A DNA stretch of 64,000 bases from NCBI GenBank assembly GCA_000165345.1, contig CM000430.1, positions 512,001 to 576,000 on the forward strand, read 5' to 3'. This document shows positions 11,201 to 25,083 of the stretch, piece after piece (positions within the stretch are counted from its first letter, which is position 1; every line of letters starts with the position of its first letter). The notes beneath the pieces were generated by a model. That model was not told where the DNA came from, did not search any database, and saw nothing but the letters and a program-made list of their open reading frames with translations. Both the position numbers and the translations under genes were made by a program.

Positions 11201-14200
11201 TTACATGGCCTCCCCAAATTCCTAATAAATAAGGCCCGTTATATTCAGGCATATTTTATTAATGCTTTTGACAGAGTTCTTCAATTTGATCTTTCACTCC
11301 GCCTTGCAGATATTGTTTATTCACTCACAAACTGCGCAGGAGATGACAAAAAATTAGTAGAATTGCTTAGAGAACGAATTTCTATTCAAAATGGTCAGGA
11401 CTTCGTTAATGACAATGTAGTAAGCGAGATTTATAATTCTTGCATGTCCTTCAGTTTTTATAAGTATCTCCTAAAAGGTGCATTATCAGAAGAACAAGCA
11501 TTTGCAGCGCCGAGAGTGTTTTACAAACCTAAATTTGGGTGGAGATTCTTTCCTCCAAATGTACCAGACTTTTCAAGGCTTTTGGTGTTGAGTAAAGCTT
11601 TCAAAGTTGAAAGTGGAAATAATGAATTTGATCGAGATCCACATAAATTATTAGATGAAACAAATTCTAATGAAATAGTTGTTAGACCATATACATGGAA
11701 AACTTTAAAAGGGATTTATGAACAGAAAAAACTGGAAATTTGGCAACTTAATAGGGCAATATCTATGTGCGCATATTTTAATCATTGGATTTCATATAAA
11801 TTCTCAACAAAGAATTCGAGAGATCTTCAAGTATCAAATTGTATAAATGCAATATATCGTTTGAAAAGCATAAATAAGAGTCAATCACAATCAGAAATAT
11901 CGCAAGTTTTTTTAAGGTACTTAGGAGTACCTTTTATTAAGGAAAATGATTTTAATGAGATGCTTTCAGCATTCACTTCATTCGAATGCGTGGGTAAACC
12001 GAACAGTATGAGCACTAGACAATGGCTAATGAACTTATATAGGATTCCTCAAATTCAAGAAAATAATAAAAATTCTCTTTCAGAAGAATTTGAATCACTA
12101 AGATTTCACATACCACCTGTCTTTGGTGAGCAAAAAACTATTTTTGAGCATGGACAGCCCCAGATCACCAGTATTAATGCGGATATTCCGGAAATATATA
12201 TTCCAATGGATCTAGATTCTGATTCGCTTAATAATTTGAGGGAGTTATTTGAAAAGTTTACTTATCGTTATTTAAGTAGGGTTGGGATAATGGTTGAAAC
12301 TGAACTTGAAGCTCTAAACTTTTCAATGGTAGATGTGTTTAAGATTGCAAGAGATAGAAAATTATCATTTTCTGAGGCACTACAGCAACATGTTTCTGAT
12401 ATTGGGGGTAATATTCAAAAGAATGTTTTTAAGAAACTCTCAGCAGCATTCTTTAGATTTATTCTTTTAAAGTTTGCAAGTAGCAACGAAGAACCATTTG
12501 TACAGATACTGAGACGAATTTCCATAAGTAGAGTAATTACTGATGTAGGAAAGCTCCCATTTGATATTCCCTTGGGTATAGTTTCGGGGAAACTCGATCT
12601 AGATCTTCCATACAATTCCCACTCTTTTGGAGAAGTAAATTTTGCAAGATTGGTAGTTGCATATATGAATGAATATTTGATAGAACTTTTTGATCTTAGA
12701 AATAAAATTTTATCCGATGGAACCGTCGAAAAAAATGTTCTTAAAGAATTTCCAGGGTTTGTTAAAGAGAATTGTGTTGCAAAAAGTATGGATGTCATTA
12801 GAAAAGGGGGGATTGATCTTCAGAATGCATTAGATCAGTCTTGTTCATCCGAATTATCTTGGATGAGTATGAAAGTTCTGAGAATGTTGGTATCTGGGCT
12901 AATGACGTACTGTAAACTTAATTTTAGAGGATTTCCAATTGAGAAAAATGGAAGAAGCATTTTAGATTTTTCCAGGGAAAATTTAAATTCCCCTATAGTA
13001 TTGTTTGACAAATACTTCAAAACTTGGACAATGCAAAATGCAAGGAAAAATACAAGAGAAGGCGAAGATTTTGGGTCTAAATTTTCTACATTGGAATCCA
13101 TAGGGATTGTGGATCAAATGACAGGAACAATTATTTCCTCAAATTTCAATTTCTGTAGTGAAATGAATACATCCCAGATAAATAGACTACTGATTAAGCT
13201 TCAATATTACAAACATTGTATTTCTGAGAATGCAATTTCAAATATTGAAGTTGATCGACTATTGGATTTGAATATTTGGTGTCTTGCTTTACGACAAAAA
13301 GTACCAGATATGAAAAAAACATATTCGAATATGTTGTTCACTTATTTTGGAATTCGCGGAGCAGTTAAAGAGAGTTTCGAGATTCTTGAGGACTCATTTG
13401 AATTTGTAGAAGAATCTTTGTTAGGAAAAAACTCTTTGGTATCTATTAGGCAGTGGGCCCAAGATTTTTATTCGTCACATTCTAAACCATTTTCTCAATT
13501 TAACTCACTTGTAAAATCTGATAAGTTATTTTGTCCAAGAGTAATTACTGAAGATGAATTGCACCAATTTCAAATTGTTCAGAAAGATAACATATTTAAT
13601 CGTGTAGAAGCATTTCAAGGATTTTCAGAGATTTTCTTAAGAGAGAAATATGGAATAATTTTTGAATCAAGACCAATAATTGCAGCGCTTTTAGTAGATG
13701 GATTCTCCATTATTAAACCATCCAACTCTAATATAGCATTAATAAGGTCTATGATACCTATTGCGTCTGAAGAAATTGTAAATTCATTAATTGGAGCATT
13801 TAATTCTTTCGAAGCAAATTTATTAAAAGGTGGTTTGACTTCTCTACAAGATTTGTATAAAAATCCAATTTGTGAACGTTCTCAAGGAAATTGGCATTTT
13901 CATGTTGAATTGGAAACAATAAACAGGGCTGATGTGCTAATAAATTCAAAGTTAATCTTTTCCGAATTAGAAATTAACAGATTTCAAAATATTGTAGCTT
14001 TTTTGAATACTGCTTTGAATTTTAAGTATTCAGAAAAAATGTTGGGATCTTATATTTCGTTTAAACATATTGCTACATTATTTAAGGCAGAAATAGACCT
14101 TTCTTCTTTTGCACATATTATTAATTATTTCCATAGAACTTTGCAGGATGATTTAAGTTTTTCACCTTGGCTTACCGTGAAGGCACTAAAAGGTATTTTC

Positions 14201-15208
14201 CAGTCCTTCATTTCTTGGGAAAGGATTGAAATCTTCAAAGTCTCGCCAACGCACTCAAAAAATTTTGGATTAGTGGTTTCTAGTGCTGATATGGCTAAGT
14301 ACAACAATTCTCCAGTGGGATTGATCAATGGAAAATGGCATTGGTATACTTGGTGTAAAAGGCCAGACTTTAATTTAATACATCGTGAAGTTTTAGGAGA
14401 CGAAGTTGTACATGTTTTGACACCCCAAGAAAGAAGTTTATATGGGATTCCCAGAATTAAACATAAATTTGAGATTGCTACTTTATTTATTCAATATTTT
14501 CTACAAGATGTATTGAATATTCTTATACCATTTAAACCGGATGTTACAATGAAGATATTTAAGGGGGAAACAAACTTATCACCTGATTCAGTTGAGTTTT
14601 TAAGAAAAATATGGGAACATTATAAAAACTCTTTTATTTATAAAGGTTCCTTACCTAAGCACGATTTATTCCACAACCCAATAATCAATGTTGTAAATAA
14701 ACAAAGATTCTTCCCAGCTGCTGCAATTCCTCGATTTGATAATTTTGATACAACTCTTATTCCACCTTCCCTAATAGAAATAGAAAATCTCTATCCTGGA
14801 ATTGTTCTTGGTTCAAAGTTTGAAATAAACAGACTGATTACTATTTGCGCATTCATAAATCTAAGCTTTGAAATTTTTATTGATGATTCAACAGAAAAAG
14901 ATGATATTATTACGCCAATAGGTTTATATGATATATTAAAGGACAAGATGAATATTTTAATTATTGAAAAACAAGACGAAATTACAGGTTTGTTTAGGCA
15001 ATGGCAATTTTATTCAGGTAGTCAAGAAAAAGCATCGCATTTAAAGATTACATTACTTAATTATAATAATTTTGAAAAGTCTATGTTGGACAGAGGATGG
15101 GATTTTTCGAAATTATATCGAAAACCTATAGTTTTTTCAGTCCAAAATGGTTATAAGATGAACTTTAATTTGAAAAGTTATATACCTAAAGTTAAGAACA
15201 GAATGTAA
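8249..15208 (+). CDS. Giant hypothetical protein of 2319 aa with an N-terminal hydrophobic signal-like segment and no recognisable domains.
   Basis: It is an uninterrupted 6.96 kb ORF with an ATG start. The N-terminus reads MKFKCKKDYLSIIFLWICFFS. A random ORF of this length is impossible at 70% AT. Confidence 0.75.
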   Translation: MKFKCKKDYLSIIFLWICFFSRNEIFVRSNNYYLGENYDSPFTKDEPNPLINHLNYVPFYGMTGISPGYENPAMIPMDPNQFNQPVTSLGKQLASELKSIQLGNGHLVPDINVNLESRASLGQDILKVKKINPKKKIKSKSKSETSERKPLINSSSLISYREYFLPVPEEVGKGVKLNESCLFSPTPMKISKKDSYWRKTDDSKAVNRFEVSSPVFTDENPFRTSSECLNLFDEAFNAYRKKELLISPERFVSLTRQVAMQLRDSLLNFKYVVSTEDSCLAMRMMLFLPHQLRNTLNCKSAIIASLRDPEEITNFELLDQLDENTESKFKDISFVCKNTFKFNEPNSSLISTQIFKPSEMAKFFRLDLTVKNLQFFHRLSIPHRKAALKVQESYQKHTKDILLYDIAASIIFLLNELHATDQSIEQCSVIVFACVSMQNGETSNLNQMTAEQICKELGIELILKKHNVKYSSLIFFQLLKKQTHDKSIFGRVSTSSYTLPSGKIFLPYSKYGYPKISSNLEIWASVGKVFSDGTVSSFIIPACTGLPASEFNRFIFLNTMIERYLTISGLGQFKLTVEDICMIAKYYLAYKKHLRNEMGNQISTEDTIPLAIFKVAQRLNLDIFTISACREIYREFSEEEEAMLKKTVGNRKEDKLESIYSKPPFSYNSNIILRHQPKINEKQYANTWCLFQKDDACSHLKHFVLNRMVLFVAYVLEFWRKSRTSEKMPFKSITEICIGFSGDYLNFRPKASDFKLFTEDWLFQKDEQTLYSNTLDLLWNNFLIFENSAFPKNSEETESDYLQRIYNNALVPEPLFVHDWKNIELPIRMDIAEFTKLLPHVQKSVEIFSTLDDITLNHVTLVRAFLESFFEETYQFPVIISEKDILLLLERRELEKKPLDELFFEIMSSKSDWSWIKHETSSHAILRLLEYLKTVKKSVEESIKRTPTKSDIYSAPRAVLAHGKWLIKAPYPVFYPSTPLQKRALHGLPKFLINKARYIQAYFINAFDRVLQFDLSLRLADIVYSLTNCAGDDKKLVELLRERISIQNGQDFVNDNVVSEIYNSCMSFSFYKYLLKGALSEEQAFAAPRVFYKPKFGWRFFPPNVPDFSRLLVLSKAFKVESGNNEFDRDPHKLLDETNSNEIVVRPYTWKTLKGIYEQKKLEIWQLNRAISMCAYFNHWISYKFSTKNSRDLQVSNCINAIYRLKSINKSQSQSEISQVFLRYLGVPFIKENDFNEMLSAFTSFECVGKPNSMSTRQWLMNLYRIPQIQENNKNSLSEEFESLRFHIPPVFGEQKTIFEHGQPQITSINADIPEIYIPMDLDSDSLNNLRELFEKFTYRYLSRVGIMVETELEALNFSMVDVFKIARDRKLSFSEALQQHVSDIGGNIQKNVFKKLSAAFFRFILLKFASSNEEPFVQILRRISISRVITDVGKLPFDIPLGIVSGKLDLDLPYNSHSFGEVNFARLVVAYMNEYLIELFDLRNKILSDGTVEKNVLKEFPGFVKENCVAKSMDVIRKGGIDLQNALDQSCSSELSWMSMKVLRMLVSGLMTYCKLNFRGFPIEKNGRSILDFSRENLNSPIVLFDKYFKTWTMQNARKNTREGEDFGSKFSTLESIGIVDQMTGTIISSNFNFCSEMNTSQINRLLIKLQYYKHCISENAISNIEVDRLLDLNIWCLALRQKVPDMKKTYSNMLFTYFGIRGAVKESFEILEDSFEFVEESLLGKNSLVSIRQWAQDFYSSHSKPFSQFNSLVKSDKLFCPRVITEDELHQFQIVQKDNIFNRVEAFQGFSEIFLREKYGIIFESRPIIAALLVDGFSIIKPSNSNIALIRSMIPIASEEIVNSLIGAFNSFEANLLKGGLTSLQDLYKNPICERSQGNWHFHVELETINRADVLINSKLIFSELEINRFQNIVAFLNTALNFKYSEKMLGSYISFKHIATLFKAEIDLSSFAHIINYFHRTLQDDLSFSPWLTVKALKGIFQSFISWERIEIFKVSPTHSKNFGLVVSSADMAKYNNSPVGLINGKWHWYTWCKRPDFNLIHREVLGDEVVHVLTPQERSLYGIPRIKHKFEIATLFIQYFLQDVLNILIPFKPDVTMKIFKGETNLSPDSVEFLRKIWEHYKNSFIYKGSLPKHDLFHNPIINVVNKQRFFPAAAIPRFDNFDTTLIPPSLIEIENLYPGIVLGSKFEINRLITICAFINLSFEIFIDDSTEKDDIITPIGLYDILKDKMNILIIEKQDEITGLFRQWQFYSGSQEKASHLKITLLNYNNFEKSMLDRGWDFSKLYRKPIVFSVQNGYKMNFNLKSYIPKVKNRM

Positions 15209-15434
15209 ATCAACTATAAAACCTTATAAATTTTTTCTCATTGTTTTTTTTTTATCTTAATTTTTTTTTTCGGGGTTGTTCATTTGTTATTTTAGTAATT
15301 TTTTGACCCACTTATTGATAATTTATTTGAAGATACATTTTAGTTATTAAATTCAATAATTTCTGAAATTGAGATAAGAATTGAATAAATATCTTAATAG
15401 CCTGGAATGTAAATTTTTTAGGGAAATGGAAGAT

Positions 15435-16618
15435 TTATTCCACATTAATGCCTGATAATTTTTCCAATTTGTTTCTCAATGAAATTTGATTTGATTTTTT
15501 GATATTTTTTTCCCATTCCTCCCAATTTTTATTTTTTGGGGTGTTTGATTCATCTAAAATTGCAGAATTATTATCCATATAATTAAAATCCGTGGGGGCA
15601 TTCAAAAAAGATTCATTTGTAAACTGAATCATCTAATTTGATTAATAATATGTAAATTAAAAAATACTTTGTGATTAAACTTACCGAAACATTTATATCA
15701 GTATGATTCGTAGTAAGTCCTAAATATTGTTCTCTAGTACTAAAAATTTTTCTAGTTGCATTGACCAAATTTTCTGGATTTCTAGGGATTTCCCAAAGCC
15801 CATAATGTTGGAGATTTATCAAATTTTGTCTCATTCTGGCATAATTCCTTCTTTTTAGAGATAACAAAGGATATTTATCCATAATTGCTAGATAAATCTA
15901 ATGCAATAGTTAAATTAAAAATTATAAATAAATTTACACTTACATCATACGAAAACTTTGCTTCACTAGAATTGGACGTTTTGTTCATATTAATTTCAAA
16001 ATCAACAATTTCAGAACTTTCTGATTCAGTAGTTATTTCAGATGATTCATTAAATTTTCCAAATACCCCAGTTTCATTTTTTATTTTAACAAGTTCATCT
16101 TCACTTAATTCAAATTGGGTACAGCATTTGCAATTCTTTTTAGAATGATTTTTTTTGAATCTTGGAAACGTAAGGCACAAATCATTTGGGGAAAGATTTG
16201 GACAAGAAATAAAAGCACTTGAGTGTAGTTCAAAGCAGGAGGAATTGCAATTTTTTGGGCAAGAATGATTACATAAATTAGAATATGTGCAGGAACTTCC
16301 TTTACACCCTGAACAGGGGCTCAAGTTGTTCGAATAATTACAATTCGGCATGTCCAAATGCTTTCTTTTACTGTAACTTGATTGTTTTGTTGCACAATAA
16401 CATTTTTTTGAACAGCAAGCAATTTTACAGGTTTTTTCTTGATCATATGGTCCAACTGTGATTTTATTTCTATATGGGTTTACAAACCTTCGATGGACTC
16501 CAACCTGCATAAAACAAGAGATATGTTGATTTTCTCTTAAATTTACATAGGGAAAACTCTGAAAGATGTCAATATAAAAGAGAATTATACTTATAAAATT
16601 TTTTATTTTATGTATCAT
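15435..16618 (-). CDS. Spliced 3-exon gene encoding a cysteine-rich protein of about 361 aa. Exons are 16618..15944, 15897..15685 and 15632..15435; introns are 15943..15898 (46 nt) and 15684..15633 (52 nt).
   Basis: Three collinear minus-strand ORFs are joined by two GTAAGT...TTAG introns. Both introns are phase 0, both keep the frame, and each upstream ORF stops inside the intron. Exon 1 carries a Cys cluster (CKIACCSKKCYCATKQ ... CSGCKGSSC ... CNHSCPKNCNSSC). It may be a CXC-like or zinc-binding domain, but the assignment is unsure. Confidence 0.55.
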
Positions 16619-16823: not shown

Positions 16824-19800
16824 TTAAATGATTATTATAGTCGAGTTTTGAGAATAATTTCCTTGGTTAAACCCATCGTGAACTATGCTAGATCCTTCAA
16901 TATCAACATTATACTCCTTTGATCTAAGACTTATTGTGCCAAGAACGCCTTCTTGCCTAAGGGTTAGTTGGGTAACAACATCATAATTGGAATAATTTTT
17001 TAAGGGGAACTGACGCTTCCCTACAGTAACTCTATCTGGATAAATGGTAATTATTTCATTAGAAATAATATCAAATACTTGGTTATTATAGTAGAATTTA
17101 CCATTATTAACTTTGTATATAATACCATTAATGTTAACTTCTTGTATTGATCCTGGATTGTGAGATAACTTTACTACAACTTCTGTGAGAGAGGACTGAT
17201 AAGTTGTAATTAATCCGTATTCTCCAATAGAATTACAGCTACAAACTATTTTTCCCTGTTTGAATTTAGTTTCACAGCCATTTTGATACCAAGAACCATC
17301 TTTTCCCTTATATGTGCATTGGTAGCTTAAACGCTTACCCAAAACAACACTAGGAGTGTATTCTGGGCTAACAATAAAACTGATTTTGTTCTCAATCCCG
17401 TAAAGACGATATTCATAGCCGCATTTAGATATAAATACGTCATACACTTTTTGAAATACTCCATTAAAGCTTTTATCTTGCTGAATTTTATTGGCTAATT
17501 CAAAAAGATAATTATACAATGGAGGTTTAATAATAGTAAGGCCATATCTAGGATCATGGCAGTTAACGAATAAATTTCTTCCCCAAAATTCTTGGTAGTC
17601 AACATTCTCATGATGTAACTTAAAGTATATGTTCTTTATCAACGAAATATCAATATTTTCAAGTTTTTCATTACTAAGGTCAAGAGTAGGAATAACTAGT
17701 TCATTTCCAATAGCTGCACCGCTATGTAAATCTAAATTAGAAAATATTGAACTTTGAATTGATAATTTTGTCATTTTCCCCTTAATTTCTATCTGGCTAC
17801 CAAAGTCATTATTCATTGCCCATTGGTTAACTGAAAATGCTCCGAACAAATTAGTATCAGCTTCAATATTATTAAGTAGTCTTAATTCAACCAAGAAATC
17901 TAAAATATCTACAATAAGATTTTTAAAACCTTCAAAATATCCACATTCAGCCTTTAGTGCAATTCTAAATAACCTTTCAGGGTCAAACGAATGATCTGGT
18001 AATGTTTTATCAAAATTCATATAGCTAAATTCAAATAATCTCCAAAAAATGTATAGAATCATTGCTGAATTTCCTCCTGTTGTATCTTTATTATTAGGAT
18101 CTATTTCAATTAGTTTCTCTTGAAATTTTTTAATCTGATCTATCGTTAGGAAATCTAATTTCGCGGATAAGATCGATGCAATCATAAGTCTATCATTTAA
18201 AGTGCCAATTTTTTGATAGTTCAAAAAATATTCTAATAAATTAGAGTACTCTTCTTTAAGTTCATCTTCTTTCAGAAAAGCTTGCCCTACTTCCAAGATT
18301 TTCTTTGACTTTTGAAAAACGAAATAATTGCATTTTGAACTTGAGTTTTTTACGCAAAACATATTTCTTAAGTGTTTGTCAATCGCATCATTACTGAATT
18401 CTGAACAGTCTATCCCACAAAGTAACTCATTATCTTGGTTATGAATAATTAGATGTATTTTCCAAGATTCATAATTTGTGGGTAATCTTAAATATTGTGG
18501 AATATTTGATGTTAAAAAGGATAGTAGTAGCGCATTACTTTTGAATTTGTTATTTTGCTCATTATCTAAGCCATTTTCACTAACTGTTGCCAGTATTGAA
18601 TATTTCCAATTACTCATCCCAGCCAAGTTTGAAATCTTAAAGTTAATGGGAATTATTTCTCTAGGTCCTTTATTCTCAGTTGTCCCTTTAATTTTTATTA
18701 ACGAAAAATCGTGTTCAAAGAATAGATCCTCCCATACGTATGACACATAATCTCCAGAAGAAGCTAGATTATGAATATTGCTTCTTTTTACAATAATGTT
18801 CAATTTATTTTGATTTATTATTTCGTTAGAATTTTGCTTTATAACTAAAAGTATAACAGAAAGCCTGCCATCTCTTGGGTTGACATCGGTTTCAGTAATA
18901 TTTAATTTAATTGAAACAGCTATTAGATCATTTTGAATTGCTTGATCTTTTAAATTGTAAACACTGGGAGTAGTTTTTAATTGAACATATCCTGTGTTTT
19001 CAAAATAAGCGAAGGAAAGGAATTTAAGTCCTTGTACATTATCCCATTCATTCCCTCCAATGAATTTTATCTTTGCCAAGAGCAAACTCTCAGAGGCTTT
19101 AGAAATTATACTTGGAATCTTGTGCGGAATAATTTGTAGTGGTAATTCTTTATTAACCATAGAAAGATAGAAGTGCTTACACTCTATTGCATCTATAATT
19201 TTACTCTTTATTCCCACTGCAATGACCATATGGGTTAAACTTTCTTGTGGTATTAGACTAAGCTCAGTGTGGGTGGCATTACCTGAAAGTGTCGCATTTG
19301 ACTGTTGAAATGAACATGCTTGACCCCAATAGGATCCATCTGTTCTACATGCTGCTAATAGCCCTGTTGTAAGATCCTCAATTTGATTTTCATCTGAAGT
19401 TGCAGAGCAGTAGTATCGGATTTCTTGATCTTGAAATTGGAAATCAGCCTGATAACTTCTTGAAGCTCTACAAGAGGAACAACCCGTTTTGATAGAATCA
19501 CAATATCCACTCTGAGAAACAATCTGGTCGATAGTTTTAGAAGTACCAGTTTCAATTGTTATTTTTGGATGATTTTTTGAAACTATCGATGAAAAATAAG
19601 CATTAATACTTGGTTGGATTGTTTCGTTATGAAAAATTACCTTATCTTTCGAAGAAGCAAATGAGTTTTTAGTGGATACTTTGGTAACATTTATCATTGA
19701 TATTGGTTGTTCTAAGATATTTATGTCTAAGTTTTTTCTTGAAGTAGATTTTATGCAATCAAATGACCCACCTTTAATATATTCTTCATTCGTAATTGAA

Positions 19801-22800
19801 ATCCTACAGCTACCAATTGATGACAGTAATTCTGGGTTGAAGAAACTATCTTTACTAATTCCAAGGCCTTCGCTCATTTCGAATTCAATGCTTTTTAAAT
19901 AATTACTTGAGAAATAGTTATTCAAAAATGGAGGACAGTTTTCTAAAGAATTATATGGTATAGAATATGGAATAACGTGCTCAATAATAGATGATACTGG
20001 AACTTTTGATTTAGTTAATGCTCCAGGAAAATTGATTAGTTTGCTGGGAATATATGTTGTAGATAACTCCCCCATTTCAGAGGCTTGTTCCTTTGTGCTA
20101 GTTTCTATTGATGTAATAATATCAAAAGTAGAATATCCAAATAAATCAGGCAAATTGTTTCCTAGCCCTAATCTACTTAATTCGAGAGTTACGTTCAATA
20201 AAACTGTTACTCCAGCTACTCCATTTATTTGAGGAAGTTCATCTTGTTGATTTAGCGGTCTCCAAAATGATTGTTTTGTTGGAAGAACTGTTCTTTGAAT
20301 AATATTCGGCTTTACATAATATGTTAAATTTATGTTTTGTCCTAGTCTTGAAAAAGAGTAATCCATATATTGAAGTTCATTTTCAAATTTCGTACAAAAT
20401 TCTAAGCTTGAGTATGCAGAGTTTGGAATTATACATTTGAAATTCAGAGATAAGCTTTCATCTGGAACAAAATCAGGAATGTTTTTTAGCTGAATAATAA
20501 TTGGAAGGAAGTCATTACAATAGGTGGATAATTTAGGATTTGAAATTAACATATATGGTTGAAGTATATTGGGCCTAGATTTAGAAAATAATGGCTTAAG
20601 GTCTTTATCTGATAAAGTTGGGATATATGGAATTGGCTTTCCTTTTAAGCCGTAATATGTAATTGCAGAACAACCACACTTGAACTCAATTGTTTGGTTT
20701 GTGAAATGTTTAACCCTCTCTGTAGTGCATAGTTCATCTGAAAGTTCGGATTGATCTTGTTTCATTGCTGTACATTTTACTTCTGAATAATCCAGTTCTT
20801 CTTTATATTCTGCAAAGAAAGAAAGTTCAACATTATTTTCTAAATTCCAAATTTCATATTCCAAAGTGCATAATACGAAAGAAGTAAATGCCAGAGGAAA
20901 TTCTTCAATGTTTTCTAGGCTTTTTGTCACCAAGTAGTTACTAAGGTATCCGCCTGTTCTTATCACAGTTATTGTGTTAAAACTTTTCGCACAAAAATTA
21001 AAACCTTCAATTGCCAAGTTATTTTCATATAGTTTTTTGTTAACTCTGTAGTAAACTCCGTTATGGAATAGTATATCTTCGGGTTTGATACTTTTCATGT
21101 CAATTTTTGGGAAAGATATCCCACCTACTTTGACGCCTTTGTTCATATCGACTTGATTAAAGGTACTACTAAATACAATATTACCAGTCTTTTCAGTAAT
21201 TATGGAGTAGGTATCTTGAACTCCATGAGTATAGCTCTTTCTAGAAGCTACACCTTGGTAAATACTTAACAAAATTTTCAAATTTTCAGGGGATAACTCT
21301 GGAAGTGGGTTTGTAGCACCAATTAGATCTGTAGAATTTAAAACAAGGTTATCAAGTCCGTTAACTAAAAAGCACTCAACCAAAGTGTATATCCTTTGTA
21401 TTGAATTGAATGGTAGTGAAGTTTTAATATCAAGCCTTTCTCTATAGTAATGCTTGCTCAAGATTCTGTTTATTACAGCTAATGTTGTTGGTTGTGCAAA
21501 CGGATAGTCTTGGTTGAAAGATATATTATGTGAATCTATTGCAGTTTCATATATTAGCTGAAAATATTTTCCCCATACAAGTTCAAAAGTGGCTGGAAGA
21601 GAAAAAATGGCATTAACAAGGCTCATTGTATCGACATAAGAAAGATAAGAAATTGGATTTGTAACAACAGCTATTGCATCTTCTATTTGCGATTCAGAAA
21701 TGTCTGGTGATGTGGTCACAACTGTGTAGTTGCAAAGATTATAATCAAAAGGGTTATTTTCGACGAATTTGGGTAAACACCATTCGGCATAAGGACTTCT
21801 ACTCATATCTCCTTCACATTCCACAAAACAGCCCTGATCCCACTTATCCGCAGTTCTAGTAAATACGTACCATTTTGAATGGGTAGGGGGCAACCTAAGA
21901 CCAAATCTATTATGCTGGCCAGACAATACCATTTCAAAAATCTGGCTATCTGGGCTAAATACAGGTTTATTCAAAGCGATAGCAGAAAATAAAAATGGTG
22001 TTATTGTGAAGTTGTAATGATGGGTTACATTCACAGGGGTGTATAACGCATCAGATATTGATGTTTTACCAGGATGTGGTTCCAGAATATTCGAACTCTT
22101 AGCTAGAAATCCATTATTTACAAAGATCCATTGCGCATATTCATGCATACCTTCATCTGACCTATATACTCTGGGGTTTAGTTTCTCATATTCGTTCAAA
22201 CTTACAGCTTTTAATAGTTCAATGTTATTCTTCTCTACAATATCATTCACAAATATGAATGCCCTTAATACACAGTAAGTTGGACTTCCATAAAACTTAG
22301 ATAATACAAATGGAGGAATTTTCACAGATCCCCCAACTTTTCCACCAGAAATAAGCACATCTCCAAGCAATACACTTTCTGGCATTACTATCAAATCAAT
22401 ATTCTCAATTTCAGGGCACATTAGCCAAGATCGCAGTTTTAGTTGGGAGTTTTCAGTCCAAGTGTTATCGGGATAAACATCCATATAAAACTGATAAGAA
22501 AAGTTTCTGCTCATAAAAATCCCTGGGAGGATTCCTCCTGCATATGGGTCTGTATATGGTGTGATTTGGGTTAGTTGAATGGGCTGATAAATATCGGTGA
22601 CGATTGTGTAATAGTGCTGGAAATAATAATAAGTATTCATTGGAGAGCAACATGTATCATTTGAAAGAGTATTGTATATGAACATAGTATTGGTGTGATA
22701 TTCTCCTGCTTTAAACGTAAACTCTGTTGTATTCAATCCAACAGGAATCCATCTATCTGGAACAGATTTTAAGCATGATTGGAACCCACTGGCAATTTGA

Positions 22801-24662
22801 GCAGGAATATCTTCTTCAAAATTACCATAATAAAATTTTAGTGCAATCATTCTTGAATTAGGGATTACTGTTAAATTTGAAGCACAGAATTCTGTAAAAT
22901 TCATTTGATCAATGATTTCTGTCTTCCAGGGAATCACCCTAGGGTTTGAGCAAATCCAACAACCATTTGGTTCCGAGCAATGGCCAAATCTATCTTGCAT
23001 ATATTGAAAATTAAAATTAAAGAAAGGGTCTCCTGCTTTTAGATCTCTGCCAGAGTATTGTACAAAAGGAACGTTAAGCCTTGGAGAAGGAGATGTTAGT
23101 TGTAATCCAGGGGTTGCCCCAAATATGTGAAATGATGGATATGCCCCCAAAAATTCAACATTTGAATTGAAATCAAAAATTGAAGATGAATCTGAAGAAC
23201 TTTGTACGCCGTATTGAAGTATTGACGTAATCATAGTTTGCATATTACTAACACCATATTGAAGAAATTCCAGTGGGGGAGGATAAAATGCAGTCTTATA
23301 TACATCTGAAATGCTTGCAGATTGAGTTGAACAGATTGTATTTGCGAATCCCGAGTTTGTTGAGCTCGGAACAAGTGGGAAGGTTCCATTAAAATAACAA
23401 CCGCCATAGTAGTTACCTGTTTCTATCCATTGCGAATTTGGAGATCCAACAGGAAAACCCTGCTCATACCAATTTGCGCCAAATGGGATCTTATTCCAGT
23501 AAGATTGGACAGCTACAGTATTTCTAAATATTTTTGATGAGTCTTTGTTAAACAAAGATTCAAGATTCCTAGGATAATTTTTGATGGAACCATCTGGTTC
23601 TTCATTGGTTGGATAGTAAAAGTCATAGTTACTTGTGCAAACGATTTCGGAGCCAGGTATTCTAGAAGGAGGCACTATTCTTACAAAGGGGCTCGTAATT
23701 GGGATATTTATATTGCCCCAGGCAACAAATCCAGCATGCTTACCTGGCTCTGTATATGTAGTATACAAAACGCCATTTGAAAACTTATCATTAGGAACTA
23801 ACATGGGGAAAAACCCTCCGAATCCAGCGGGGGGCGTCCAGAAAGATGACAATCCTGAGCTCTGCTTTGAAAATTCATAGCTTAGGGTGATATTTGCAGA
23901 GAATTCAATTACAGGAATGTCGGTTCCATGAGAATTTGTGCCAGGAACAACTTCAGAATAATCTACACTAATTTTAAATGGGAATGATGTTGCCTTAAAT
24001 AAATATGTAGAAATTCCAACTTTATCCATAACGTCTTCTCCAAATATTGTGGGATCAAACTGGTACTTAACATCCCTATCCATTATTTGGGGAATCTTAT
24101 CTGGAAGTTGTTCATTAAATTCTTTAACAATATTCACGAGTTTCGATCCTTCTAACCAAATTGTAATATTGTTTGCTCCATTAAATATTGTATACGTAGT
24201 TTCACTTTCCATCAGAGCTTGTGCAATATCAGTACAAGCCTTGACAACTTTTACTGTATCTACACCTAATTGGAACTTCTGTAAGCTTTTTTGTAATGAA
24301 ACTGAATCACAAATAATATTTTTAATTGGAGTCATGCCACTTTTTGGATAAGACCCAATAAACTGTATTGTTATTGGATGCATAAATTGGCATGGGCTTA
24401 CAAAATTGGTTACTTGACTATCTATAGAAAGAAAGTTACCTACTCCCGGCCCAATGAATAGAGATGCCAAATTAAATCCGATAGGGTAGTAGTAAACTCT
24501 GTCAGGCGGACCGTTCATATCTATGTTTGCATTGGCCATACCAAACATAAATATTTTAAAGCTTACGAATGAAAGCAGAAGTAAAATGAACTGCAAACAC
24601 TTTAGTCGTCTTATCTTCATCTTAAAAAACGAGGGCATCAAAAAGAATCCTATATTGTCCAT
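16824..24662 (-). CDS. Giant secreted hypothetical protein of about 2610 aa. The ORF-track start at 24689 is a GTG. The first ATG is at 24662, and the signal peptide probably begins at the ATG at 24620 (MKIRRLKCLQFILLLLSFVSFKIFMFGMANA).
   Basis: It is an uninterrupted 7.8 kb ORF with a canonical signal peptide ending in ANA. Cys is scattered. I see no TM segment or known domain. Confidence 0.75.
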   Translation of the reverse strand: MDNIGFFLMPSFFKMKIRRLKCLQFILLLLSFVSFKIFMFGMANANIDMNGPPDRVYYYPIGFNLASLFIGPGVGNFLSIDSQVTNFVSPCQFMHPITIQFIGSYPKSGMTPIKNIICDSVSLQKSLQKFQLGVDTVKVVKACTDIAQALMESETTYTIFNGANNITIWLEGSKLVNIVKEFNEQLPDKIPQIMDRDVKYQFDPTIFGEDVMDKVGISTYLFKATSFPFKISVDYSEVVPGTNSHGTDIPVIEFSANITLSYEFSKQSSGLSSFWTPPAGFGGFFPMLVPNDKFSNGVLYTTYTEPGKHAGFVAWGNINIPITSPFVRIVPPSRIPGSEIVCTSNYDFYYPTNEEPDGSIKNYPRNLESLFNKDSSKIFRNTVAVQSYWNKIPFGANWYEQGFPVGSPNSQWIETGNYYGGCYFNGTFPLVPSSTNSGFANTICSTQSASISDVYKTAFYPPPLEFLQYGVSNMQTMITSILQYGVQSSSDSSSIFDFNSNVEFLGAYPSFHIFGATPGLQLTSPSPRLNVPFVQYSGRDLKAGDPFFNFNFQYMQDRFGHCSEPNGCWICSNPRVIPWKTEIIDQMNFTEFCASNLTVIPNSRMIALKFYYGNFEEDIPAQIASGFQSCLKSVPDRWIPVGLNTTEFTFKAGEYHTNTMFIYNTLSNDTCCSPMNTYYYFQHYYTIVTDIYQPIQLTQITPYTDPYAGGILPGIFMSRNFSYQFYMDVYPDNTWTENSQLKLRSWLMCPEIENIDLIVMPESVLLGDVLISGGKVGGSVKIPPFVLSKFYGSPTYCVLRAFIFVNDIVEKNNIELLKAVSLNEYEKLNPRVYRSDEGMHEYAQWIFVNNGFLAKSSNILEPHPGKTSISDALYTPVNVTHHYNFTITPFLFSAIALNKPVFSPDSQIFEMVLSGQHNRFGLRLPPTHSKWYVFTRTADKWDQGCFVECEGDMSRSPYAEWCLPKFVENNPFDYNLCNYTVVTTSPDISESQIEDAIAVVTNPISYLSYVDTMSLVNAIFSLPATFELVWGKYFQLIYETAIDSHNISFNQDYPFAQPTTLAVINRILSKHYYRERLDIKTSLPFNSIQRIYTLVECFLVNGLDNLVLNSTDLIGATNPLPELSPENLKILLSIYQGVASRKSYTHGVQDTYSIITEKTGNIVFSSTFNQVDMNKGVKVGGISFPKIDMKSIKPEDILFHNGVYYRVNKKLYENNLAIEGFNFCAKSFNTITVIRTGGYLSNYLVTKSLENIEEFPLAFTSFVLCTLEYEIWNLENNVELSFFAEYKEELDYSEVKCTAMKQDQSELSDELCTTERVKHFTNQTIEFKCGCSAITYYGLKGKPIPYIPTLSDKDLKPLFSKSRPNILQPYMLISNPKLSTYCNDFLPIIIQLKNIPDFVPDESLSLNFKCIIPNSAYSSLEFCTKFENELQYMDYSFSRLGQNINLTYYVKPNIIQRTVLPTKQSFWRPLNQQDELPQINGVAGVTVLLNVTLELSRLGLGNNLPDLFGYSTFDIITSIETSTKEQASEMGELSTTYIPSKLINFPGALTKSKVPVSSIIEHVIPYSIPYNSLENCPPFLNNYFSSNYLKSIEFEMSEGLGISKDSFFNPELLSSIGSCRISITNEEYIKGGSFDCIKSTSRKNLDINILEQPISMINVTKVSTKNSFASSKDKVIFHNETIQPSINAYFSSIVSKNHPKITIETGTSKTIDQIVSQSGYCDSIKTGCSSCRASRSYQADFQFQDQEIRYYCSATSDENQIEDLTTGLLAACRTDGSYWGQACSFQQSNATLSGNATHTELSLIPQESLTHMVIAVGIKSKIIDAIECKHFYLSMVNKELPLQIIPHKIPSIISKASESLLLAKIKFIGGNEWDNVQGLKFLSFAYFENTGYVQLKTTPSVYNLKDQAIQNDLIAVSIKLNITETDVNPRDGRLSVILLVIKQNSNEIINQNKLNIIVKRSNIHNLASSGDYVSYVWEDLFFEHDFSLIKIKGTTENKGPREIIPINFKISNLAGMSNWKYSILATVSENGLDNEQNNKFKSNALLLSFLTSNIPQYLRLPTNYESWKIHLIIHNQDNELLCGIDCSEFSNDAIDKHLRNMFCVKNSSSKCNYFVFQKSKKILEVGQAFLKEDELKEEYSNLLEYFLNYQKIGTLNDRLMIASILSAKLDFLTIDQIKKFQEKLIEIDPNNKDTTGGNSAMILYIFWRLFEFSYMNFDKTLPDHSFDPERLFRIALKAECGYFEGFKNLIVDILDFLVELRLLNNIEADTNLFGAFSVNQWAMNNDFGSQIEIKGKMTKLSIQSSIFSNLDLHSGAAIGNELVIPTLDLSNEKLENIDISLIKNIYFKLHHENVDYQEFWGRNLFVNCHDPRYGLTIIKPPLYNYLFELANKIQQDKSFNGVFQKVYDVFISKCGYEYRLYGIENKISFIVSPEYTPSVVLGKRLSYQCTYKGKDGSWYQNGCETKFKQGKIVCSCNSIGEYGLITTYQSSLTEVVVKLSHNPGSIQEVNINGIIYKVNNGKFYYNNQVFDIISNEIITIYPDRVTVGKRQFPLKNYSNYDVVTQLTLRQEGVLGTISLRSKEYNVDIEGSSIVHDGFNQGNYSQNSTIIII

Positions 24663-25083
24663 ATTACTGGAATTATTCTCCAAAATCACCAGTATTTTAC
24701 CCCTCTATCAAGAAAGAATACCTTTAATCTCCACCACACATTTTTACACAATTATGCTACTTGACACAATAGCTGATTTTAAATAACTAAGGAAAGTTAT
24801 GGAGCCATATTAATCAATGTAAAATATGTTTGGCTAAAAAAAAATAATATGTTTATTACAATTTGAGGTGCAATATCACAATTACAATAAATTGAAGGTA
24901 AATAAAAGTTAAAATACAATAGTTTTTATAGGAACAGTGTTTCGTTATCATTATTGAAATAAGCAATGGGAATTTTTGTTATTTGTAAAAATTACGCATA
25001 TGTTTATTCTAACCTGATTTCTAAAATTATTAAGTAAAGGTAAACAATTATTTTGTTCTATAAAGAAAAATTTGATTTATGTT

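Follow-up and report, generated by a model that had tools for sequence, protein, structure and literature searches.

The minus-strand gene at positions 15435-16618 of the DNA stretch analysed here is cgd2_2600 (CPATCC_0028190 / cpbgf_2002600) of Cryptosporidium parvum chromosome 2. The stretch, referred to below as the window, comprises 64,000 nt of contig CM000430.1 in assembly GCA_000165345.1 (positions 512,001-576,000), and all coordinates given are window positions. The sequence, the comparison across species, and the identity to published evidence-based models show the predicted two-intron structure of this gene. Taken as a whole, the observations are best explained by a two-intron gene of 361 amino acids whose product would be a secreted or surface glycoprotein of the sporozoite or the oocyst interior, and we regard this explanation as highly probable.

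The 361-aa spliced translation is identical at every residue, by exact-sequence look-up, to QOY42971.1 (cpbgf_2002600) and WRK31050.1 (CPATCC_0028190), both deposited for C. parvum under the name 'uncharacterized protein'. These deposited models represent the same gene in the same species; they have the same 361 residues, the same two introns, start, and stop, and no differences. The supplement of Mauzy 2012 gives quantitative PCR (qPCR) primers for cgd2_2610 and cgd2_2590, which have one match each, within the flanking open reading frames (ORFs) of 2621 aa and 2319 aa, respectively. The primer matches in both flanking ORFs, combined with the exact protein identity, therefore assign the gene as cgd2_2600.

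The six-frame ORF list contains three minus-strand ORFs in this region, located at 15875-16618 (247 aa), 15613-15882 (89 aa), and 15435-15632 (65 aa). An earlier note on this DNA had proposed that these collinear ORFs form one spliced gene of about 361 aa, which was borne out by the identity to the two deposited proteins and by conservation in six species; the splice-site coordinates, intron lengths, phase, and exact restoration of the frame that it had given are all correct. Joining 16618-15944, 15897-15685, and 15632-15435 yields a coding sequence (CDS) of 1086 nt with a continuous ORF of 361 codons. The exons, all on the minus strand like the other features of the gene, are 675, 213, and 198 nt long, each divisible by 3, so both introns are phase 0. 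Exon 1 (15944..16618, codons 1-225) starts with the ATG at 16618 and encodes a hydrophobic leader, an FVNPYRNK motif, a variable Cys-rich region, and an acidic Ser/Thr-rich stretch. Exon 2 (15685..15897, codons 226-296) encodes the best-conserved part of the protein (IYLAIMDKYPLLSLKRRNYARMR...YGLWEIP...REQYLGLTTNHT), and exon 3 (15435..15632, codons 297-361 and the TAA stop at 15437-15435) contributes a conserved NWEEWEK motif and a predicted C-terminal helix.

Intron 1 (15898..15943, 46 nt) begins with GTAAGT at 15943..15938 and ends with TTAG at 15898, and a putative branch point, TTAAC, can be read in the sequence 13 nt before the AG. Intron 2 (15633..15684, 52 nt) has its GTAAGT at 15684..15679 and its TTAG ending at 15633. 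In the translation, the first junction joins ..FSYD to IYLAIMDKYP.. and the second ..TDINVS to MIQFTNESF.., and the junction-spanning peptides of the spliced product are ..AKFSYDIYLAIMDK.. and ..HTDINVSMIQFTNESF.., respectively. The G+C content of the introns is 15%, compared with 27%-30% in the exons. Reading through the donors adds VS... and then meets stops, as the earlier note had described for the ORF track; the stops come after 22 and 23 codons. Both introns resemble typical Cryptosporidium introns in their GT-AG boundaries, strong GTAAGT donor, and AT-richness. In the Cryptosporidium genome, introns occur in approximately 11% of genes and have a mean G+C content of 22% and a mean length of 99 nt, and the genes that contain them have 2.6 exons on average (Isaza 2015, PMC4637869, Table 1). 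At approximately half that mean length, the introns of cgd2_2600 are short but not exceptional.

The comparison of orthologous loci is a strong and decisive control for the two predicted introns. The loci of C. ubiquitum, C. canis, C. meleagridis, chipmunk genotype I, and C. hominis UdeA01 were compared with that of C. parvum, six in total, and both introns are conserved in all of them, so that the comparison with orthologues suggested in the earlier note supports its gene model. The intron 1 donor GTAAGT directly follows the ..SYD codons in 6/6 species, exon 2 measures 213 nt in every one, and the intron 2 donor, GTAAGT or GTGAGT, is invariably found at exon 2 offset 213. The introns themselves vary in length: intron 1 has 46 nt in C. 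parvum, C. ubiquitum, C. meleagridis, and C. hominis, 47 nt in chipmunk genotype I, and 48 nt in C. canis, and intron 2 has 52 nt in C. parvum, C. ubiquitum, and C. hominis, 50 nt in C. canis and C. meleagridis, and 57 nt in chipmunk genotype I. The differences between these lengths are not multiples of three, so the conserved peptide that follows is in frame with exon 1 only after splicing. Read-through meets a stop in 11 of the 12 cases (two introns in six species), including all six for intron 2. The exception is intron 1 of C. canis, whose 48 nt are a multiple of three and contain no stop, and whose retention would insert 16 residues in frame. With GT and AG ends that restore the frame, a conserved position, and a freely evolving length, both introns fit the U2-type GT-AG class.

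Splicing at these sites reproduces exactly the proteins that were annotated independently for C. hominis, C. ubiquitum, and C. canis, as well as the C. parvum entry. Conservation is concentrated downstream of the first intron: nucleotide identity to C. ubiquitum reaches 82% in exon 2 versus 64% in exon 1, and in an eight-species alignment, which adds C. felis, C. ryanae, and C. bovis, 14 of the 18 invariant columns belong to exon 2 and 16 to exons 2 and 3 together.

The frequency of the donor hexamer was also considered as a test of significance and rejected, as GTAAGT occurs in the window at chance level (26 observed versus 25 expected). A more demanding filter asked for 50 or more open codons on the upstream side, for the same minimum once a YAG-terminated intron of 35-89 nt was taken out, and for a read-through stop within 40 codons. 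Only two of the 26 GTAAGT hexamers passed it on all three counts, and these are the two donors of cgd2_2600. Block-shuffled sequence gave 0.08 passing sites per window, which is a weak control because shuffled sequence holds few long ORFs.

Published annotations add transcript support. C. parvum Iowa was reannotated by RNA-seq, with models altered only if read mapping backed the change, and the improved annotation was carried to C. hominis UdeA01 with RATT (Isaza 2015, PMC4637869). The UdeA01 model at this locus has three exons and 363 aa, and its gene span of 1190 nt consists of 1092 nt of CDS and 98 nt of intron. The introns of the IOWA-ATCC annotation, which includes CPATCC_0028190, were reported to be 100% RNA-seq supported (Baptista 2022, PMC8744675). 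The gene model is correct but ordinary: the reannotations of 2015 and 2022 made it public, and GenBank contains the exact protein. A reader of the raw sequence alone recovered a base-exact model that the 2004 reference had got wrong and that the RNA-seq reannotations of those two years fixed.

The 2004 Iowa II model (XP_626462.1 / EAK88743.1, 247 aa) has the same start codon and is identical in exon 1 through residue 225, but it reads through intron 1 (tail VSVNLFIIFNLTIALDLSSNYG) and lacks exons 2 and 3, which encode the conserved part of the protein. Read-through models of intron 1 persist for Iowa II (XP_626462.1), C. hominis TU502 (XP_667235.1, 249 aa), and chipmunk genotype I (246 aa), and the chipmunk genotype I locus, when spliced, gives a 364-aa orthologue. 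Another group of models starts at Met37 and omits the leader, i.e., C. meleagridis UKMEL1 (328 aa) and the CPHLJ, CPCDC, and CHM entries (325-326 aa); at the C. meleagridis locus the upstream ORF is intact and gives 365 aa. Users of the old proteomes (Iowa II, TU502, chipmunk genotype I, C. meleagridis UKMEL1, and some 2023-24 assemblies) consequently lose either the well-conserved part or the leader of the protein.

Two other accounts of the locus have to be weighed against the spliced 361-aa model. In the first, the locus is unspliced and its product is the 247-aa read-through protein XP_626462.1, the downstream ORFs being chance occurrences or separate small genes. The persistence of the read-through entries in the databases speaks for it, as do the gene calls on Logan assemblies, which give the 247-aa and 65-aa ORFs separately, although unspliced calling on genomic contigs would produce just that. 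However, the read-through tails (VSVNLFIIF...) show no conservation at the protein level and differ in where they end, exons 2 and 3 encode the best-conserved segments of the protein in eight species, and an intron 1 of 46, 47, or 48 nt shifts the frame of exon 2 between species, yet the peptide is conserved. Evidence-based reannotations, moreover, all use the spliced model, and the unspliced account can practically be set aside. The second account accepts splicing but adds regulated alternative products, arising by intron retention (truncated proteins of 247 aa or 319 aa) or by use of an alternative in-frame CAG acceptor of intron 2 (15624-15632), situated 9 nt past the TTAG, which would remove Met-Ile-Gln. 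C. parvum, C. hominis, C. meleagridis, and C. ubiquitum all carry this CAG, and C. canis would tolerate retention of its intron 1, but C. canis and chipmunk genotype I lack the CAG, and the curated models all take the first AG. Alternative splicing exists in Cryptosporidium but is very scarce, with three putative alternatively spliced genes reported genome-wide (Baptista 2022, PMC8744675). Such alternative products are thus improbable, if somewhat less so than an unspliced gene, and the spliced, three-exon model remains the preferred one.

The N-terminus of the spliced product points to the secretory pathway. Codons 1-22 (16553..16618, MIHKIKNFISIILFYIDIFQSF) encode a predicted signal peptide with an inferred cleavage site, which is the sole strongly hydrophobic segment of the protein: the Kyte-Doolittle maximum of 1.84 falls at residues 8-22, and no other window exceeds 1.6. 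AlphaFold2 (AF2) predicts a helix at residues 2-20, and an N-terminal hydrophobic segment is found in all seven orthologue models that retain the N-terminus. Residues 1-36 are conserved and uninterrupted by stops in C. hominis, C. ubiquitum, C. canis, chipmunk genotype I, and C. meleagridis, whereas Met37 is replaced by Thr, Ala, or Ile in other species; as Met37 is not conserved, Met1 is taken as the start. The protein is also enriched in N-x-S/T sequons, with 15 observed versus 6.5 expected from composition, and none of 2000 shuffles reached at least 15. Three of these asparagines, N190, N271, and N289, are invariant in five species, each in a conserved sequon. The leader and the sequon excess would place the Cys-rich region in the secretory pathway, where disulfides are expected rather than zinc sites.

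The dense Cys clusters noted earlier in exon 1 were confirmed, as all 19 Cys of the protein lie within residues 35-166, and 18 of them belong to a poorly conserved, Ser/Asn-rich low-complexity region covering residues 63-167 (16118..16432). An acidic Ser/Thr stretch (FNESSEITTESESSE) is also present in the protein. Only six of the 19 Cys are invariant in five species (C68, C69, C102, C163, C165, and C166), and the comparison of eight species leaves C102 and C166 alone; in C. ubiquitum, a 34-residue block of the region is deleted. The Cys-rich region evolves rapidly, and this speaks against a fixed scaffold of either the metal-binding or the disulfide type. Many gains and losses of Cys separate C. 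parvum from C. hominis (e.g., C73F, Y83C, Y95C, and C116S). The cgd2_2600 protein is 92% identical to C. hominis CUV04618.1, and the same value was published for CHUDEA2_2600 and cgd2_2600 (identity 0.92, dN/dS 0.28), while the neighbouring genes show 94%-98% identity between the two species (Isaza 2015 supplement, PMC4637869). The UniRef name of the C. hominis orthologue PPS95091.1 refers to a TNFR-Cys domain; this candidate found no support, as no TNFR_c6 or related Pfam match was found at E<=10 and no PDB relative at E<0.09.

Searches for relatives outside the genus gave no family assignment. A sequence search with the spliced protein matched Cryptosporidium proteins alone. The Pfam-A scan of the 361-aa product at E<=10 returned only Erv26 (E=0.02, below its cut-off), over the leader, and the sequence-profile search of PDB gave no significant match, its best hit being a homing endonuclease at E=0.099, attributable to chance. 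An exhaustive profile search of 1.84 billion representative proteins recovered Cryptosporidium orthologues only, and reported none for C. muris or C. andersoni, which are gastric species. By these searches, cgd2_2600 is an apparent genus-restricted orphan. Its orthologues comprise C. hominis CHUDEA2_2600 (363 aa), C. tyzzeri (362 aa), C. meleagridis, C. ubiquitum cubi_00639 (359 aa), chipmunk genotype I, C. canis (414 aa), C. felis (376 aa), C. ryanae (397 aa), and C. bovis (512 aa). At the loci whose DNA was compared, they share the three exons, the synteny between giant genes, the leader, the Cys-rich region, the conserved core, and a W-x2-W motif. They differ in protein identity, which ranges from 92% down to approximately 22%, and in the length and Cys count of the Cys-rich region; C. 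bovis and C. ryanae additionally have long acidic C-terminal extensions, unlike cgd2_2600. The conserved core reads DKY-x6-R-x-N-x2-R ... L-x-E-I ... F-x2-RE-x-Y-L-G-L-T. The W-x2-W motif, with W333 and W336 invariant in eight species, lies at the start of the predicted C-terminal helix, which AF2 places at residues 333-356 and which is the only segment with a predicted local distance difference test score (pLDDT) of approximately 50. It is possible, though we put this forward tentatively, that exon 2 and the W-x-x-W helix form a new genus-specific domain of a secreted sporozoite protein acting in excystation, attachment, or invasion, while the fast-evolving, Cys-rich, glycosylated N-terminal half is exposed to the host or to immune pressure.

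Expression data indicate the stage at which the gene is active. In the bulk RNA-seq data of Tandel 2019 (PMC6877471), the log2 counts per million for cgd2_2600 were 7.9, 7.8, and 7.9 in sporozoites, 2.9, 2.7, and 2.9 at 24 h, and 3.6, 4.0, and 3.6 at 48 h, so that its mRNA is approximately 30-fold higher in sporozoites than in the 24 h culture. The same study lists the gene in the sporozoite-only partition (sheet 'SporoVSinvivo-Sporo'). At the protein level, cgd2_2600-RA-p1 was quantified by tandem mass tag (TMT) mass spectrometry in excysted oocysts (PMC12548878 S7 Table). A full-text literature search for cgd2_2600 and CPATCC_0028190 found no paper, and the gene is absent from the qPCR set of Mauzy 2012, the supplements of Dumaine 2021, and the AP2-F supplements of Tandel 2023.

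Taken together, these data suggest the following course of events. The spliceosome would remove two very short, AT-rich, phase 0 GT-AG introns from the minus-strand transcript, and the mRNA would be stored or expressed mainly in sporozoites. The hydrophobic leader would direct the protein into the endoplasmic reticulum (ER), where the 15 sequons may be glycosylated and the rapidly evolving Cys-rich region would form disulfides, not zinc sites. Exon 2 and the W-x-x-W motif of exon 3 would carry the genus-specific function, and the protein, found in excysted oocyst material, would most likely act at about the time of excystation and invasion, as a glycoprotein, secreted or at the surface, of the sporozoite or the oocyst interior. 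On its sequence features, the product is most likely a genus-specific, secreted protein of the sporozoite/oocyst stage that carries N-glycans and disulfide bonds.

Several observations weigh against this picture. The h-region of the leader contains an Asp, and some recent annotations of 325-326 aa (e.g., CPHLJ_2g2600) start at Met37 and have no leader. AF2 runs with 5 and 8 orthologues gave no confident fold (mean pLDDT 29 and 33, respectively) and hence no structural support for any function. Transcript support for cgd2_2600 is indirect, resting on the annotators' general statements and not on a per-gene record, and the quantification of Tandel 2019 relies on the old Iowa II transcript models. 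The TMT signal of cgd2_2600-RA-p1, finally, was low and came from one batch only.

Two different assignments of the protein were considered. The earlier note had suggested that the Cys-rich exon 1 is a zinc-binding or CXC-like module, to be sought with Pfam CXC/Tesmin and zf-* profiles, which would make it an intracellular zinc-binding or CXC/Tesmin-like DNA-binding domain. The presence of 19 Cys in 132 residues, with CC, CxC, and CxxC spacings, fits this suggestion, but the profile search with the 361-aa product gave no CXC/TCR (PF03638), zinc-finger, or other family at E<=10 beyond the chance-level Erv26, nor did the PDB search give a significant match. The pattern of ligand Cys is not conserved, given the few invariant positions and the deletion in C. 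ubiquitum, the region is nearly devoid of His, and the hydrophobic leader and sequon enrichment point to an ER-lumenal or extracellular location. The suggestion is not supported, and such a module is very improbable. An oocyst-wall structural protein of the COWP type, i.e., secreted, Cys-rich, made by the female gamete, and incorporated into the wall, would be a more plausible analogy, which also fails on homology and expression. In common with COWP1-9, cgd2_2600 has many Cys, no transmembrane domain, and a presence in oocyst preparations, the excysted material in which it was found including walls, and its hydrophobic leader would correspond to their signal peptide. However, the search of 1.84 billion representatives recovered no COWP and no non-orthologous Cryptosporidium protein, and the Cys of cgd2_2600 are not arranged in conserved periodic repeats. 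Its mRNA is sporozoite-high rather than female-high: it is low at 48 h, when sexual stages dominate the cultures, it belongs to the sporozoite-only partition and not to the female sets, and the gene is absent from the AP2-F supplement searched. A COWP-type wall protein is therefore unlikely, and the sporozoite or oocyst-interior glycoprotein described above remains the preferred reading. As such, cgd2_2600 would join the many sporozoite proteins of this important diarrhoeal pathogen that are confined to the genus, probably secreted, and still uncharacterised. The question of function that this orphan poses is common to hundreds of other Cryptosporidium genes, and cgd2_2600 gains interest only if it is placed in a secretory organelle or shown to matter for invasion.

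The window around the gene has a G+C content of approximately 30% and is dense with long intronless ORFs; a tRNA scan of the window found none. Upstream, on the same strand, lies cgd2_2610 (16824-24689, minus strand), a giant intronless ORF that ends 205 nt before the ATG of cgd2_2600. Downstream, cgd2_2590 (8249-15208, plus strand), another giant intronless ORF (2319 aa), is convergent with cgd2_2600 across a gap of 226 nt. As this gap is so short, the 3' untranslated regions of both genes must be either very short or overlapping. An AATAAA hexamer (15434..15439, minus strand), read from the sequence, overlaps the TAA stop of cgd2_2600 and may serve as a polyadenylation signal in the convergent gap. 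The order cgd2_2610 / cgd2_2600 / cgd2_2590 is syntenic in all species examined, where the contig reaches far enough: flanks of approximately 2600 aa and 2320 aa surround the orthologue in four species, and in C. canis, whose contig stops just past the gene, the upstream flank is present. A Pfam scan of the cgd2_2610 and cgd2_2590 proteins returned zero domains, and the N-termini of both products are hydrophobic. The GTG listed as the start of the 2621-aa ORF of cgd2_2610 is an artefact produced by the bacterial rule for start codons; counted from the ATG at codon 10, the protein has 2612 aa, in agreement with the lengths of the C. hominis and C. meleagridis orthologues.

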